Positions 1 through 62,263 are shown, counted from the stretch's first letter. The stretch: 64,000 nt of DNA from Methanocaldococcus sp. 28A (GCA_049852185.1 CP187540.1), one strand, 5' to 3'. A program made the numbers and translations. The notes: a model not told the origin generated them from the sequence alone.

Positions 1-87
1 GAGGTGGGTGAGACAAACATAACTTTTATATACTCGAATTAATAAACTAACTTATGTCCCCGGTCCAAGTTATTAATGGGTGGGGTT
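1..87 (+). mobile_element. Partial second copy of the IS605-type omegaRNA mini-element (promoter and 5' part only; left end lies before the window)
   Basis: 1-87 is near-identical to the reverse complement of ~14469-14556. Similarity stops at GGGGTT, where IS701-like transposase sequence begins. Confidence 0.85.
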
Positions 88-611
88 AAACCTAAACTAT
101 CGATAAGTTTTAAGTTATCTTTACTTGAATACCAACTATCGAAACAGATATATCTAATATTTAATCCTTTATCCACTAAAGACTTTATTATCTCCCTACA
201 TAAATTATTTTTCGTCTTTCCATCTCTTGGTCTGTCATATACTCTAAAATCGATTGGAATAATATGTTTTCCATTTGTAATTATGCAATCAACAATATGT
301 ATGCCTTTAATTACTCGTTTATGTAGATTACTCCAACAATAATAAGCAAATTCAGTCGATTTAGAGTAAATTTTATCTATAACAAAGTCATCTATAACGA
401 CAATATTATAATCAGGAGTGATAAAATCTTTAACGAAATTAAAAAGCTTTTCTTGTGGGAAGATTCCTTCTTCCCAAAGTATTCTATTTATTGTATCGTG
501 AGATATGTCGATTCCGAAAATACGCAACGTTTTCGATAACTCTACACACGAATTAATCTCTGAAAGTAATATAAAAAGCATATAAACGATAGTCCTCGAC
601 ATTTTTAGCAT
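39..611 (-). pseudogene. IS701-family DDE transposase, C-terminally truncated
   Basis: Two catalytic Asp motifs are present and the third (Glu) region is missing. The last ~15 codons come from the adjacent mini-element. Confidence 0.75.
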
Positions 612-3593: not shown

Positions 3594-4141
3594 GTTTTCA
3601 AACTCCGTATCAGTCTTATTTTAACCAAAATTCAAATTATTTCATACATGATTTTTTAAGTGAATGTTTCCATACCGAATCGGTCTTATTTTAATAATAC
3701 TTGCGAATGAGATTAACAAGCTAAATGAGATACATACAGAACTCGTTTCCATACCGAATCGGTCTTATTTTAATTTGAGATATTAGCAACAAGAATTAGT
3801 TTTTTTTCGAGAATTTTACGAGGTTTCCATACCGAATCGGTCTTATTTTAATGGACTAATAATTGGTATAGATTACGATAGCGATATAGACGTTTCCATA
3901 CCGAATCGGTCTTATTTTAATGAGGTGGATTTTAATATAGATTTAGATAACAAAATGATTAGAATGTTTCCATACCGAATCGGTCTTATTTTAATCAAAG
4001 GAAGAATATGAAGTCCTCAATGGATTGTTTAGTTTCCATACCGAATCGGTCTTATTTTAATTAAAATAAAAGAATTTTCGATTTTAAAAACAAATAATTA
4101 TTTCATATTATGTTTCCATACCGAATCGGTCTTATTTTAAT
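3594..4141 (-). CRISPR. Orphan CRISPR array; repeat ATTAAAATAAGACCGATTCGGTATGGAAAC (30 bp); 7 intact repeats, 1 degenerate terminal repeat, 7 spacers
   Basis: Identical repeats start at 3666, 3745, 3823, 3892, 3966, 4032 and 4112, with a degenerate copy at 3594-3625. Spacers are 36-50 bp. Orientation inferred from the GAAAC 3' end, the degenerate distal repeat and the leader position. Confidence 0.97.
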
Positions 4142-14298: not shown

Positions 14299-14500
14299 AA
14301 CTATAGGGCTTCGCTTTTATGACGGCTCTCCGCCCTAAAGGGCGGAGTTTCGAGAGAGCGAGCCTAAGCTCGCCCTCTCCGGCCCCGCCAAAGCCACTAT
14401 CCCTATCCCATTTGGGATTCGGGGCTACGCTTTAACCATTTCTATGTCCCCAGCGGTGGAGTTTTCGATAACCCCACCCATTAATAACTTGGACTGGGGA
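14299..14500 (-). ncRNA. Putative TnpB omegaRNA (scaffold ~14500-14319 plus flank-derived guide ~14318-14299)
   Basis: GC-rich with several hairpins (TATGTCCCCAG/CTGGGGACATA; GAGAGGGCGAGC/GCTCGCTCTC). TATA TTTTATATA lies ~25 nt upstream and the 3' end coincides with the IS right end. Confidence 0.55.
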
Positions 14501-14650
14501 CATAAGTTAGTTTATTAATTCGAGTATATAAAAGTTATGTTTGTCCCACCCACCTCCCCTATCTCCTTGCTTCGCAAGGAGAGTAATGAAATCTGAAAAA
14601 TTTCATCTGAATTCATCACCGCCCTAAAGGGCGGTGCTTTCTTAGCGACA
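14319..14650 (-). mobile_element. Non-autonomous IS605/IS1341-type mini-element carrying a putative omegaRNA, with no tnpA or tnpB
   Basis: Subterminal hairpins (CA/CT)CCGCCCTTTAGGGCGG at both ends. TTTAT lies immediately 5' of the left end (14655-14651, minus) and the right end finishes ...GAGAGCCGTCAT. Confidence 0.8.
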
Positions 14651-14967
14651 ATAAATGGTAAAATCTCAGTGTTCATATAAGAACCGCCCATGGGTAAATC
14701 AAGAATTGATTTTAAAACACTTTTTCCTGGAAATTGATATCTTGATAATGCATATCCAATTGGTATTGATGACAAGAAACGTTGAGATTGAAGAGGTTAC
14801 AATTGATAGCTTTAAAGAATAAATCATTTCTTCAGTTTTTAATGAACTAATAACTTCTGAAGGATTAGGAATTAGAAACAATGATGCAATCGCTAAAAAT
14901 AATAAAAAAGCAAATAAAAATGATAATAAGATGCAAAAACCCTGAAAATAATATATTTCATTAACAT
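14651..14967 (-). pseudogene. Molybdate/tungstate ABC permease ModB/WtpB remnant
   Basis: YSLKLSIVTSSIST and IPIGYALSRYQFPGKSVLKSILDLP are in different frames. Has an internal deletion and is cut at the mini-element. Confidence 0.75.
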
Positions 14968-14981
14968 CACCTTAAAACAAT

Positions 14982-15567
14982 TTATTGATTACATGGGATA
15001 AAACCCCATTTTCTCCAAATTTCTTTTGGTTCATCACTTGAAATATAATTATTAAATGCCTCAGCAACCTCTAAGTTATTGTCTTTTTTGGCATAGATTG
15101 TTACAGCTGTTGGAATTGTTTTTATAATGTTTTTATCTTTTGGAATTCTAATAACATCAATTTTTCCTTTACCTTCTGCCCAAGTAACCATATTCTCCCA
15201 TATAATTGACGCATCTGCTTGATTTGTTACTAAATAGATAAGAAGCTGATTAACTGTTGGTGTTTTAACAATAATATTTTTGCTAACAGTATGCTCCCGG
15301 AATGAAAACATCTCCTCCTGTTGTTGTTAAGATTCCAAACAATTCCGCACTACCTCCATAATGAACTTCCACTTTAGCCCCTGTTTTATTTTCAAAGTTC
15401 TGTATGAGTTCATTCATTGGCTTCATTAATCCAGCTCCACATAAAACAGTTATTGTCTTTCCTTCATAAGGTTTGTTTGTTGAAATTAGTTTATTTTCAT
15501 TCAAACAACCACATAAAACTCCAAATATGAGCATTAAAGAAACAAAAAGGTAAATTTTACCATTCAT
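14982..15567 (-). pseudogene. modA: Molybdate ABC substrate-binding lipoprotein ModA, frameshifted and internally deleted
   Basis: Lipobox LCGC and CGAGLMKP..YGGSAEL..GDVFIPG in ORF 15567-15283. C-terminal ADASIIWE..IWRKWGF is in another frame (15311-14982). Confidence 0.8.
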
Positions 15568-15711
15568 ATTTTCACATCCCCTAAGCCTTCTATTAATTAT
15601 ATATGGTTATTATTTATCCCCCATGTTAATTAAAATAGATTAACAAAAGATAATGATTTATACACTATAAAAATAAAATAAAAAGGATAGGTTGTATGAG
15701 GAAGAGATATT

Positions 15712-16518
15712 ATGTTAATATTTGGCACTGCTGGAGTTCCAATATCTGCAGAGGACGAATTTAAAGGAGTAGATGTTTTAAGAAAGTTAAATTTGGGAGC
15801 TATGGAATTAGAATTTGTTAAAGGAGTTTATATGAAAGAGGATTATGCTAAAAAGTTGAAAGAGTATGGAAAAGATATTATTTTTTCTGCTCATGCACCC
15901 CATTTTATAAATCTTAATGCAAATGAAAATGAAAAAATAGAGAATAGTATAAGGAGAATTATCAAAACAGCTAAGGTTTTAAACAATTGTGGTAGAAATT
16001 TAGTTTTTCATCCTGGATATTATTTGAAAAGAAGTAAGGAAGTAACTTACAATAGAATAAAGTCAAATATTCAGAGAATTTTGGATAAATTAGAGATTTT
16101 AAATTTAAATATTATGTTAAGACCTGAAACTACTGGAAAAACTTCACAATTTGGTGATATTGACGAGATATTAAAACTTTGTTTTGAATTGGATATTTTG
16201 CCATGTATTGATTTTCCCCATATTTATGCAAGAAGTAGAGGGGCTATAAATGATTATAACTCTTTTTATAAAGTTCTTGAAAAGATTGAAAATACCTTAG
16301 GAAAAAATGCTATAAAGGATATGCACATTCATTTATCAGGAATAGAGTATGGAAAGGGAGGGGAAAGGAGGCATTTACCTTTAAATGAATCTAATTTTAA
16401 TTATAAAGATGTTTTAAAAGTTTTAAGAGATTTTGAAGCCTCTGGAACTGTAATATGTGAGAGTCCAAGGTTGGAGTATGATGCTGTTTTGTTGATGAAA
16501 TGCTATAATGACTTATAA
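15712..16518 (+). CDS. Endonuclease IV-like (AP endonuclease 2) TIM-barrel protein
   Basis: SAHAPHFINL, FHPGYY, ETTGK, HIHLSG, CESP. Confidence 0.85.
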   Translation: MLIFGTAGVPISAEDEFKGVDVLRKLNLGAMELEFVKGVYMKEDYAKKLKEYGKDIIFSAHAPHFINLNANENEKIENSIRRIIKTAKVLNNCGRNLVFHPGYYLKRSKEVTYNRIKSNIQRILDKLEILNLNIMLRPETTGKTSQFGDIDEILKLCFELDILPCIDFPHIYARSRGAINDYNSFYKVLEKIENTLGKNAIKDMHIHLSGIEYGKGGERRHLPLNESNFNYKDVLKVLRDFEASGTVICESPRLEYDAVLLMKCYNDL

Positions 16519-16594
16519 AATCCTAAATTGATTATTTTATATAAAATGAAACAAAAATTAATTAAATTAATTATTAGTAAAATTGGTGTTTAAG

Positions 16595-17518
16595 ATGATA
16601 GGTGAAATGGACATTATAAAAGAAACTTATGAAAAAATCAAAAATATGGAAATTAGAGGAGCTGGAAGGATAGGGAGGGCTGCAGCTAAGGCATTGAAGG
16701 AATATGCTCTAAAAATTTTTCATTTAAGTGAAGAAGAATTCAAAAATAAAATGAGAGAAGCTGGAGATTTATTGATATCTGCAAGACCTACAGCTGTTTC
16801 TCTACCAAATGCTGTAAAGTATGTATTAAAAGGATTAAATGAAGAAAATCCAAAAGAGAGGATTATAGAAAGGGCTGATGAATTTATAAGCTCTTCATTA
16901 AAGGCAATTGAAAATATAGGAAAGTTTGGGGCTAATAGAATAAGGAATGGAGACACTATATTAACTCACTGTAATTCTGAAGCTGCTATAAGTGTTATAA
17001 AAACTGCTTATGATAAAGGAAAAGATATTAAAGTTTTTTGCACAGAAACAAGACCAAGAAACCAAGGTTACATAACAGCAAAAACTCTCTATGACTACGG
17101 AATTGATGTAACTTTAATAGTTGATTCTGCAGTAAGATACTTTATAAAAGATGTTGATATTGTCATTGTGGGAGCTGATGCCATAACAGCAAATGGATGT
17201 CTTGTAAATAAAATAGGAACTTCTCAAATTGCTTTAATAGCTAATGAGAGTAGAGTTCCTTTTTTAACAGCCGCTGAAACTTATAAATTCCATCCAAAAA
17301 CTATAGTTGGAGAACTAATTGAAATAGAAGAAAGAGACCCAGAAGAAGTTACAACATTTGAAGATAAATATAAAGGTATAAAGATAAGAAATCCAGCATT
17401 TGATGTAACTCCTGCTAAGTATATAGATGCCATAATAACAGAGATTGGATTAATTTCTCCACAAGTAGCGTGGTATATTATAGAAAAGTTCTTTGGTTGG
17501 GGCCGTTTCCTTAAATAG
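16595..17518 (+). CDS. Ribose-1,5-bisphosphate isomerase (eIF-2B alpha/beta/delta family)
   Basis: EIRGAGRI, ARPTAVSL, THCNS, ETRP, VGADAI, NKIGT, NPAFDVTP. Confidence 0.9.
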   Translation: MIGEMDIIKETYEKIKNMEIRGAGRIGRAAAKALKEYALKIFHLSEEEFKNKMREAGDLLISARPTAVSLPNAVKYVLKGLNEENPKERIIERADEFISSSLKAIENIGKFGANRIRNGDTILTHCNSEAAISVIKTAYDKGKDIKVFCTETRPRNQGYITAKTLYDYGIDVTLIVDSAVRYFIKDVDIVIVGADAITANGCLVNKIGTSQIALIANESRVPFLTAAETYKFHPKTIVGELIEIEERDPEEVTTFEDKYKGIKIRNPAFDVTPAKYIDAIITEIGLISPQVAWYIIEKFFGWGRFLK

Positions 17519-17759
17519 AACATACAAAACAAATCTATACTTTTGTTTTTATAAAATACCATCCAAAATTTTAAATAATAATTTTAACGATATATTATAA
17601 CGTGGCAGTCCCGATATGTAGGGGAAACTAAGCCCAATGGGACTGCTATTAAGTCGAAGATGTGGGGAGTTCTTGTTCCCCCGATTGCCAGCCGATGAAG
17701 TTGGGAGGCTGGACTACGATTCGTTCGATATGTTCCATTTGTAGCGGAGAACCAGAACG
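17503..17759 (+). mobile_element. Non-autonomous IS607-like mini-element 1 (left end CCGTTT, AT-rich promoter region, omegaRNA-like region, right end CCAGAACG)
   Basis: Starts CCGTTT like the ends at 18043 and 62093. Contains tnpB 3'-end remnants (..PICRG.. and KMWGVLVPP). Confidence 0.55.
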
Positions 17760-17780
17760 GGTCTGTCCAATATGGACAAA
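17602..17780 (+). ncRNA. GC-rich structured RNA, putative TnpB omegaRNA (HgcC/sotRNA-like)
   Basis: Stem 17602-17612/17639-17649 has G-U pairs valid only on the + strand. Also stem GGGGAG/TTCCCC, K-loop CCAGCC-GATGA..GA-GGCTGG, and TATA-like TTTTAAATA ~25-30 nt upstream. Confidence 0.65.
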
Positions 17781-17980
17781 CATCCATATTGGACTTGGGC
17801 GTCATCAACCCTCTGGGTTCATTGGCTTAGGTCTCTGCCCCTGTCATGGACATAAAAACCTTACGGTTTTTAAGTTCTCGTCGCTTCGCTTTGAGAGACT
17901 ACCTACCCCTCTCATTGGTTAAATTGATAATAACTGCCCTTCTTGACCCCTCATTTTCTCCCACATCTGGGGCAGTTATA
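17740..17980 (-). ncRNA. GC-rich structured RNA, second putative omegaRNA, convergent with the first
   Basis: Closing stem ATAACTGCCC/GGGCAGTTAT; 12-bp hairpin GTCCAATATGGA/TCCATATTGGAC; K-turn-like AATGA-ACCC..GGGT-TGA; TATA-like TTTATAGA just upstream. Confidence 0.55.
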
Positions 17981-18043
17981 TTTTAGTAATGAAAATCTAT
18001 AAATGTCTATATTTGCCTATGAAAAATTAAACAGTTTAAACGG
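17758..18043 (-). mobile_element. Non-autonomous IS607-like mini-element 2 (left end CCGTTT with ~10-bp direct repeats, omegaRNA-like region, right end CAGACCCG)
   Basis: Minus strand CCGTTTAAACTG..ATAGGCAAAT-ATAGACATTT-ATAGATTTTC; CPRCG zinc-finger remnant; left end repeated at 62036-62093. Confidence 0.55.
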
Positions 18044-18224
18044 CAGAATATACAACAGTTACATAGGAATTCCTAAAAATGATAAAACATAAGAAACAGA
18101 TATGATATAAAACACCGTAATAAATTGTGTAGTTATTAAGTTCTCTTCATCTTTAATGTTAATAACAACCTCATTAGTATCTCTATATTTCTCTACCTCA
18201 ATATATTATTTTTTGGTGTAAACA

Positions 18225-61922: not shown

Positions 61923-62035
61923 ATTTTTTGAAAGTGTGGTATCCCGAAAATATTTCGCATCTATAAATAATAAAAAAGAGGTTGATATAACTATAATCCC
62001 TAATTTTTTATATATACTTTCATATAAATCTTTCT

Positions 62036-62093
62036 GTAATGAAAATCTATAAATGTCTAATCTGTTTATGAAAAATTAATCTGTTTCAAACGG
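62036..62093 (-). mobile_element. Solo IS607-like left end
   Basis: GTAATGAAAATCTATAAATGTCTA..TATGAAAAATTAA..GTTT..AAACGG, closely matching 17986-18043. Similarity stops at the CGG. Confidence 0.6.
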
Positions 62094-62263
62094 AATTTAA
62101 ATAATGTAATAACTACAGGTATCGTTAAGAAGGAAAAAATTGAAAGAGAACATTTCTTTAAAATTAAAAATCCTAAAAATATTGTTAAATAATAATCTAC
62201 AGAGAGAAAAGTCTAAAAATTATTTCAAGATGATTTACCTTCGTAGTTATATTGGGGATTTTT

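Follow-up and report, generated by a model that had tools for sequence, protein, structure and literature searches.

Three GC-rich islands in a Methanocaldococcus genome as probable protein-less IS200/IS605 mini-elements with omegaRNA-type scaffolds

The window analysed here is a stretch of 64,000 nucleotides from Methanocaldococcus sp. 28A (GCA_049852185.1, CP187540.1), part of a 1.556-Mb, Methanocaldococcus-like genome whose positions outside the window are given as coordinates on contig C1. Three GC-rich islands in this window, I1, I2 and I3 (GC 0.47-0.60 against 0.15-0.35 in their surroundings in 100-nt windows, with a mean of 0.297 for the whole window), are probably non-autonomous, protein-less insertion sequence (IS) derivatives of IS200/IS605 origin and of the PATE/MITE type, forming three families in which a promoter would drive an omegaRNA-type scaffold. 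A preliminary description had singled them out as guide-RNA cassettes without tnpB in cis, and the islands proved real, its coordinates lying within ~8 nt of the limits set here by aligning the genomic copies together with their flanks and the stem strings that it quoted all being present. The islands, as read here, are as follows.

14319-14657, minus strand: I1, a complete protein-less IS200/IS605 mini-element of 339 bp, one of three near-identical copies.
~17501-17760, plus strand: I2, a degraded protein-less member of a cassette family, limits from the family alignment.
~17759-18044, minus strand: I3, a degraded protein-less member of a cassette family, limits from the family alignment.

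Every island belongs to a repeat family of its genome and is therefore not a product of chance. I1 has two further full copies (C1:741683-742021 and C1:360160-360499; 97-98% identity, unrelated flanks) and a truncated half copy, 98% identical and running from the left end to the middle of helix 2, which crosses the start of the window (window 1-88; C1:1407895-1408088, plus strand). Further long copies of I2 lie at C1:36119, 1360500, 216176 and 162223 (75-82% identity) and of I3 at C1:1265364, 638522, 889501, 1226564, 957094 and 1512830 (72-86% identity), with the three families being separate from one another. I2 and I3 meet at their right ends, where 1-3 nt are shared or ambiguous. The common layout described earlier was found again in all three, an IS200/IS605-type left end coming first, then a TATA-like box and a structured RNA body, and last a right end, without tnpB in cis, in gene-free elements of 260-340 bp overlapped just by short mechanical open reading frames (ORFs). 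Cassettes are more numerous in the genome than intact tnpB genes, and the genome holds eight matches to the TnpB zinc-ribbon family, five to OrfB_IS605 and one to the Y1 transposase. A search of the genome for serine recombinases gave no match, such that of the IS200/IS605 or IS607 origin proposed earlier the first is retained and the second is not.

The autonomous relative of I1 is the sole element in the genome with both tnpA and tnpB, located on the minus strand at C1:~829.3-831.46 kb and bearing the genome's one Y1_Tnp gene (C1:830884-831318) together with a tnpB at C1:829713-830903. Identity between I1 and this element is 91% at the left end and, over 115-123 nt, 76% at the right end, with 87 nt of the right-end match overlapping the C-terminal codons of tnpB and the last ~115 nt of the I1 body being homologous to the tnpB 3′ end plus the right end. 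A G-rich box and a TTTTAT(A/G)T promoter segment are likewise common to I1 and the left end of the autonomous element. I1 starts CATTTATTGTCGC right after TTAC and terminates GCCGTCAT; TTAC precedes I1-type left ends in six of eight cases in the own genome and in all eight clear cross-species cassettes, with no target duplication. IS608 uses TTAC too. The parts of I1 are the following.

14658-14661, minus strand: TTAC target and likely target-adjacent motif (TAM), directly 5′ of the I1 left end.
14617-14636, minus strand: left-end subterminal hairpin CACCGCCCTTTAGGGCGGTG, identical in the autonomous IS and the source of a sub-threshold HgcC match of 24.8 bits.
14525-14532, minus strand: TATA box TTTATATA, 21-23 nt from the first stem bases and homologous to a segment of the autonomous IS left end.
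14319-14503, minus strand: predicted RNA body, an omegaRNA-like scaffold ending at the right end ...GCCGTCAT.
14328-14347, minus strand: right-end subterminal hairpin CTCCGCCCTTTAGGGCGGAG, helix 7 of the I1-type alignment A1.
14299-14318, minus strand: predicted guide of I1, AAAAGCGAAGCCCTATAGTT, the flank just beyond the smc stop codon, placed from the right-end boundary.

With three copies at 97-98% identity and a matching TnpA and TnpB in the same genome, I1 looks to be presently active. In the autonomous I1-type element itself ~317 nt at the 3′ end of tnpB are tandemly duplicated, which creates a second ORF of 124 aa before the right end (C1:829348-829767).

Conserved RNA pairing is strong for I1 only. 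In an alignment of 12 I1-type cassettes, 97.8% of the cells are paired and compensatory two-sided changes occur in 9/46 pairs, values that none of 500 shuffles reached and against which slid controls gave at most three two-sided pairs, with the proviso that the structure was derived from the same alignment and is thereby favoured. The right-end hairpin carries a double compensatory change (CC/GG to AG/CT) in two of the 12 sequences, while the variable extra hairpins of I1-type cassettes occupy loop positions. The window copy of I1 folds with a minimum free energy of -96.7 kcal/mol (z -6.89), which none of 200 shuffles equalled; the window copies of I3 and I2 fold with z -3.42 and z -1.74. The closing stem, put at 10-11 bp in the preliminary description, measures 9-10 bp in I1 and 10-12 bp in I2, falling to ~8-9 bp in the window copy of I3.

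The position of the promoter relative to the structured body is also conserved in I1 and I2. In Methanocaldococcus jannaschii the TATA box is reported as TWTATATA, with 23±2 nt from its 3′ edge to the start in 126/134 promoters (PMC2699501), and this rule was applied here to the boxes of the islands, giving weight to conservation rather than mere presence since TATA-like words are frequent in AT-rich DNA. The I1 box is exact in 10/12 cassettes from six genomes, with one mismatch each in the other two, and the start predicted from it falls on the first bases of the stem. In I2 such a box stands 23-27 nt before the stem in 7/10 copies read, with the predicted start 1-3 nt before the stem. A conserved TATA box at start-site distance is thus found in I1 and I2, for which the earlier statement that the structured region begins shortly downstream of the box is borne out, the geometry of I3 being ambiguous.

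The alignments show the predicted RNA bodies to derive from the 3′ parts of tnpB, with the exception of the 5′ hairpin of I1. For I3 the features concerned are these.

17996-18003, minus strand: TATA-like box TTTATAGA inside the left end, the usual TATATATA box of the family being deleted in the window copy.
17761-17977, minus strand: predicted RNA body, with a 5′ hairpin from tnpB zinc-finger codons and a middle from the last 34 tnpB codons.

I3 starts GCCGTTT and terminates GGACAGACC(C), with a right-end hairpin GTCCAATATGGA...TCCATATTGGAC. Its first stem is the DNA for TCPICGSKMESQEGQVV in a 419-aa tnpB (C1:632 kb), in which the 11-bp hairpin is already present within the gene, and the last 34 tnpB codons are retained at 77%. 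Missing from I3 relative to tnpB are ~95 nt of AT-rich coding linker and ~190 nt before the right-end hairpin, so that AT-rich linkers are gone and GC-rich stems retained. The left end of I3 and its AAATATGAGT-plus-TATA segment are common to a tnpB-bearing element at C1:1519091-1520553, whose right end is related, and this tnpB promoter segment (AAATATGAGT and the TATA box) directly precedes the zinc-finger hairpin in I3. Solo left ends of I3 type lacking an RNA body also occur, one starting TCCGTTTGAAACAGATTAATT at 62028-62094 (minus strand) of the window and at least eight in all scattered in the genome.

For I2 the corresponding features are the following.

17570-17577, plus strand: TATA-like box TTTAAATA.
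17600-17760, plus strand: predicted RNA body, its 5′ hairpin and middle hairpin aligning to tnpB codons of congener G005.

Two parts of a 312-aa tnpB in G005 align with I2, its zinc-finger codons CPICGCKLDPNGQ with the 5′ hairpin (score 41 against a maximum of 27 in 500 shuffles) and its last codons with the middle hairpin (score 61, shuffle maximum 34). I2 and the G005 stretch form the same two-tier hairpin, with outer arms that differ yet remain complementary. The preliminary description read the 5′ arm of the closing stem as CPxC codons in all three islands, which by homology is right for I3 and I2 and wrong for I1, where three of six orthologous elements match the 5′ hairpin at 76-78% in tnpB nt ~425-487 (codons ~142-162) and a fourth has a 15-residue insertion exactly at the match point. 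I2 terminates CCAGAACGG, and its ends were defined from family copies alone, with a related right-end tip ...AACGG on an element bearing a 442-aa tnpB. An I2-type left end is also found right after ...GGGAAACGG, the right-end tip of that element (C1:1022659-1022740, minus strand), a junction that hints that the I2-type and the 442-aa tnpB element may be of one transposition group. No parent tnpB of I2 was found in its own genome. The family occurs in 4/17 genomes of the genus, where none of 16 I2-bearing loci has a correctly oriented tnpB upstream, two unrelated 3′ fragments being all that was met, and the I2-bearing genomes lack a close homologue of the G005 TnpB, the best match being 32-35% identical.

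The search among copies for parent elements thus recovered homology to tnpB and to IS ends and, in addition, I1-type cassettes with identical internal joints in six genomes. The view that deletions joined the left-end promoter to the RNA body holds in so far as the cassettes are tnpA- and tnpB-less derivatives, but not for the locus itself, since the shared joints across six genomes indicate that each deletion probably is a single event in a family ancestor that then spread.

The islands were also compared with the Hgc noncoding RNAs, as had been proposed. At gathering thresholds an Rfam scan gave no family on any island, while at E<=10 only sub-threshold hairpin matches to HgcC and chance matches were seen. 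I1 scored 24.8 and 16.7 bits against HgcC (RF00062), hairpin matches only, for a gathering threshold of 50 bits, with no HgcC match on I2 and I3 and none over threshold in the own genome. The islands are therefore not HgcC members. The family passes threshold in 8/17 genomes of the genus, and in 6/7 HgcC loci aligned it is preceded by a left end of I1 type, the G-box being present or absent, and by a TTTTATATA box, the first position of the Rfam model falling 25 nt after this box at one locus of G005 (G005_L127). The model ends ~12 nt beyond a right-end hairpin and a GGTCAG motif. With the left end and box before it and the right-end motif at its end, Rfam HgcC is, on these alignments, the body of a sister cassette with an I1-type left end and promoter. 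HgcC RNAs were detected by northern blot and differential RNA sequencing, three of them starting within transposase genes in the sense direction and two being unlinked to transposases (PMC4247193), and HgcC had been noted to contain a right-end-like tetraloop and a PATE RNA to be expressed (PMC4615843). A literature search, supplements not covered, turned up no publication describing HgcC as a cassette-borne omegaRNA.

The insertions in the window are private to their genome. The I2/I3 pair downstream of an IF-2B-family gene is absent in 11/11 congeners having the locus, and I1 after smc is absent in 14/14 congeners. The I2/I3 pair coincides with a break of synteny at the IF-2B-family gene, where the I2 left end replaces the last codons of the gene and provides its stop, congener genes ending ...YFGWLEK* without the element. 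Behind the IF-2B-family gene, 10/11 congeners carry a TATA box and a GC-rich, RNA-like stretch of ~375 nt that matches no Rfam family (L161:1901-2300; window site 17490-17518); in the own genome this stretch lies 285 kb away at C1:1140952-1141346, so that the I2/I3 pair marks a rearrangement breakpoint. No clear insertion motif could be derived from the copies for I2 and I3, and GGG, considered as the I2 TAM, was dropped as the empty site of congeners puts the G-run partly in the gene and partly in the left end. At the other locus, different GC-rich structured inserts lie right after the smc stop in two congeners (L176 of G005 and L179 of G012), and in L174 and L181 a short insert precedes a second copy of part of the smc 3′ end. 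The site seems prone to insertions.

The 16-nt guide positions of 24 right-end-bearing sites have no second exact match in the genome, I2 and I3 excepted, and the first 16 nt of the I1 guide have none at up to two mismatches. The right ends of the window copies of I2 and I3 adjoin, so that the guide position of each is the tip of its neighbour and therefore matches further copies, that of I2 being exact (16/16) at the tip of the I3 copy at C1:1226546. The preliminary description had seen in the three cassettes a selected, dispersed, CRISPR-like guide repertoire, a view that is not supported, given sites absent from all 11 and all 14 congeners, the degraded state of I2 and I3 and the lack of a second guide target. 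Recent selfish insertion agrees better with these facts than guides fixed for regulation would. The idea of guides served in trans is already in print for omegaRNA-bearing protein-less elements (PMC10055086).

The TnpB proteins that might serve the cassettes are encoded by multi-copy genes in IS contexts rather than at fixed single loci. One type, of 442 aa, has canonical residues, and in the I3-cognate clade Q occupies the position of ISDra2 D361 in 14/14 intact orthologues (58-89% identity), two distant paralogues retaining DRD; the Q-variant gene of the own genome lies at C1:632370-633590. D361 of ISDra2 is a catalytic residue. Both cognate TnpBs might be read as dead, but they are not called so here because clades with E-to-G and a compensating Glu, and archaeal branches with RuvC-III variants, are judged to be rearranged and probably active (PMC10691335). 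Contig C2 (10,393 bp) carries three identical TnpB zinc-finger-like fragments at 704, 4600 and 8496, whose even spacing of 3,896 bp makes it look like a multimer of a ~3.9-kb unit.

In the sequence of events envisaged here, internal deletions in an ancestral tnpB-bearing element would have joined the left end and promoter to the GC-rich structured 3′ parts of tnpB with the right end retained, after which each family multiplied. Archaeal RNA polymerase would start ~23 nt after the TATA box and read through the scaffold into the flank, so that the DNA adjoining the right end would serve as the guide of the resulting omegaRNA. A TnpB encoded elsewhere, for I1 that of the C1:829-831 kb element, would load the cassette RNA, and after excision of I1 by TnpA it could cut the empty TTAC-plus-flank site, with repair restoring the cassette and so retaining it selfishly. 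The window copies of I2 and I3 look like decaying members of their families.

Several observations weigh against this reading. The I1-cognate TnpB has G at the RuvC-II Glu position in 6/6 orthologues, as placed by alignment to solved TnpB-family structures, and the I3-cognate clade has N/D-R-Q where ISDra2 has D359-R-D361. The 5′ hairpin of I1 unexpectedly comes from the interior of tnpB rather than from the region known to give omegaRNA, and the empty site of the I1 copy at C1:741683-742021, seen in two congeners without the element, is approximate with a 12-nt indel at the joint. No transposase with I2- or I3-type ends was identified in the genome, and no Rfam family reached its threshold on an island. 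The window copy of I2 has a 10-nt deletion that takes out the 5′ arm of its right-end helix, and its family shows compensatory changes in 3/41 pairs, not above controls. The window copy of I3 has lost ~40 nt of the family promoter segment and ~10 nt of the right-end hairpin loop, its predicted start is ambiguous, falling inside the 5′ stem arm or, in sister copies, ~10 nt upstream, with the promoter geometry off by several nt, and although 94.7% of cells in the I3 alignment are paired the covariation is not above shuffles. The 5′ stem that the preliminary description gave for I3 is absent from the RNAalifold consensus, a direct count finding it 82.9% paired with no two-sided changes.

These observations bear most directly on the possibility that the islands are inert relics, plain transposon remnants whose structure is a parental leftover or reflects the DNA hairpins used by the transposase, with no functional RNA. 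The deletions in the right-end helix, hairpin loop and promoter of the window I2 and I3 copies, the 14/200 shuffles that fold as well as the I2 copy, the I2 and I3 covariation at control level, the private insertions and the I2-bearing genomes without a close cognate tnpB are all in keeping with such an origin. It is nevertheless unlikely, as the internal helices of I1, which are not those of transposase recognition, carry compensatory changes across six genomes at a fixed TATA distance, I3 shed AT-rich linkers while retaining GC-rich stems and the related HgcC RNAs are reported as expressed in other archaea (PMC4247193). The RNAs might instead be regulatory on their own, independently of TnpB, a role suggested for the HgcC and PATE RNAs at a time when omegaRNA was not yet recognised, overexpression of a PATE-derived RNA and of a sotRNA having improved growth of Halobacterium salinarum (PMC4615843). 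Nothing in the present analysis points to an mRNA target, and all three bodies are homologous to those 3′ parts of tnpB that form omegaRNAs in studied systems, making this the least probable of the readings weighed here.

Two further readings turn on the altered RuvC positions. The cassettes could form a domesticated repertoire of many trans-acting guides for non-cutting, TldR-like TnpBs that regulate or silence targets, to which the excess of cassettes over intact tnpB genes, the invariant Q in the 14 I3-cognate orthologues and the persistence of the I2 family in 4/17 genomes without a close tnpB lend some colour. Against this stand the multi-copy tnpB genes in IS contexts, insertion sites that are not conserved, the lack of a second exact genomic guide target other than cassette ends and the judgement that such substitutions, E to G included, are rearranged and probably active (PMC10691335), all of which leave it with very little probability. 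Slightly less improbable, and still a long shot, is a scheme in which dispersed promoter-driven guides would serve RuvC-altered TnpB clades that bind rather than cut, with the families targeting one another in an RNA-guided conflict of mobile elements or acting as a programmable silencing layer of the host. With the right ends of I2 and I3 adjoining, the guide of the window I2 RNA would be the tips of other I3 copies and that of the I3 RNA would match I2 tips.

The window and genome contain other features besides these cassettes. A CRISPR array of seven repeats matching Rfam CRISPR-DR13 occupies 3666-4141 (minus strand) of the window, and a solute-binding protein gene (SBP_bac_11) at 14982-15567 (minus strand) consists of two overlapping ORFs of 94 and 109 aa and is probably frameshifted. 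A four-copy repeat starting CGCTGACTCC(A/G)CGGGTGTTTCCATAAATAGATTATATA is located at C1:54776, 635246, 1013815 and 1479481.

As protein-less IS200/IS605 mini-elements, the islands would provide three clean archaeal examples of an omegaRNA scaffold that survives the loss of its nuclease gene, and HgcC, long an orphan RNA family of Methanocaldococcus, is tied to the same cassette design. The islands also offer, for short omegaRNAs under a promoter of their own, a compact natural template of hyperthermophile origin, and I1 with its single TnpA/TnpB partner would be a tractable system for trans-complemented transposon retention. A new kind of system is not revealed.

The islands share with TldR systems (PMC10705468) the substitutions at RuvC catalytic positions in their cognate TnpB clades. 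The inactive, immobilised tnpB and the conserved guide-target pair that characterise the TldR type were not found here, the cognate tnpB genes being multi-copy and transposon-borne with no conserved target or partner gene, and a single catalytic position being changed per clade in patterns described as rearranged rather than dead. Like the omegaRNA (reRNA) of ISDra2 and ISGst TnpB, I2 and I3 derive from the 3′ end of tnpB, the hairpin that encodes the zinc finger included, and the islands end at the transposon right end with the guide expected from the flank and, for I1, a TAM-like TTAC. They differ in having no tnpB in cis, in a scaffold shortened through loss of linkers and in an upstream promoter of their own, compared with processing from tnpB mRNA. 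Close to the HgcC and sotRNA kind, sister cassettes in congeners combine an I1-type left end, a TATA box and a right-end hairpin with HgcC as the RNA body, although the window islands score below the HgcC threshold.

The closest likeness is to PATEs (PMC10055086), among them VNG_R0052 of H. salinarum (PMC4615843), which likewise have no ORF, occur in many copies with unrelated flanks, share left and right ends with subterminal hairpins with an autonomous element and carry an RNA body that has its homologue in the 3′ end of tnpB and is predicted to need TnpB in trans, as stated by Meers et al. (2023; PMC10055086) for PATEs encoding omegaRNAs. The window islands are set apart as families in a hyperthermophilic methanogen, by the fusion of an archaeal left-end promoter to the scaffold at start-site distance, by the origin of the I1 5′ domain in the tnpB interior and by the crowding of three unrelated families into 4 kb, two of them meeting at their right ends. 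The kind of element is thus a known one, named by Meers et al. (2023) and foreshadowed in the work on HgcC and sotRNAs, while the families are new.

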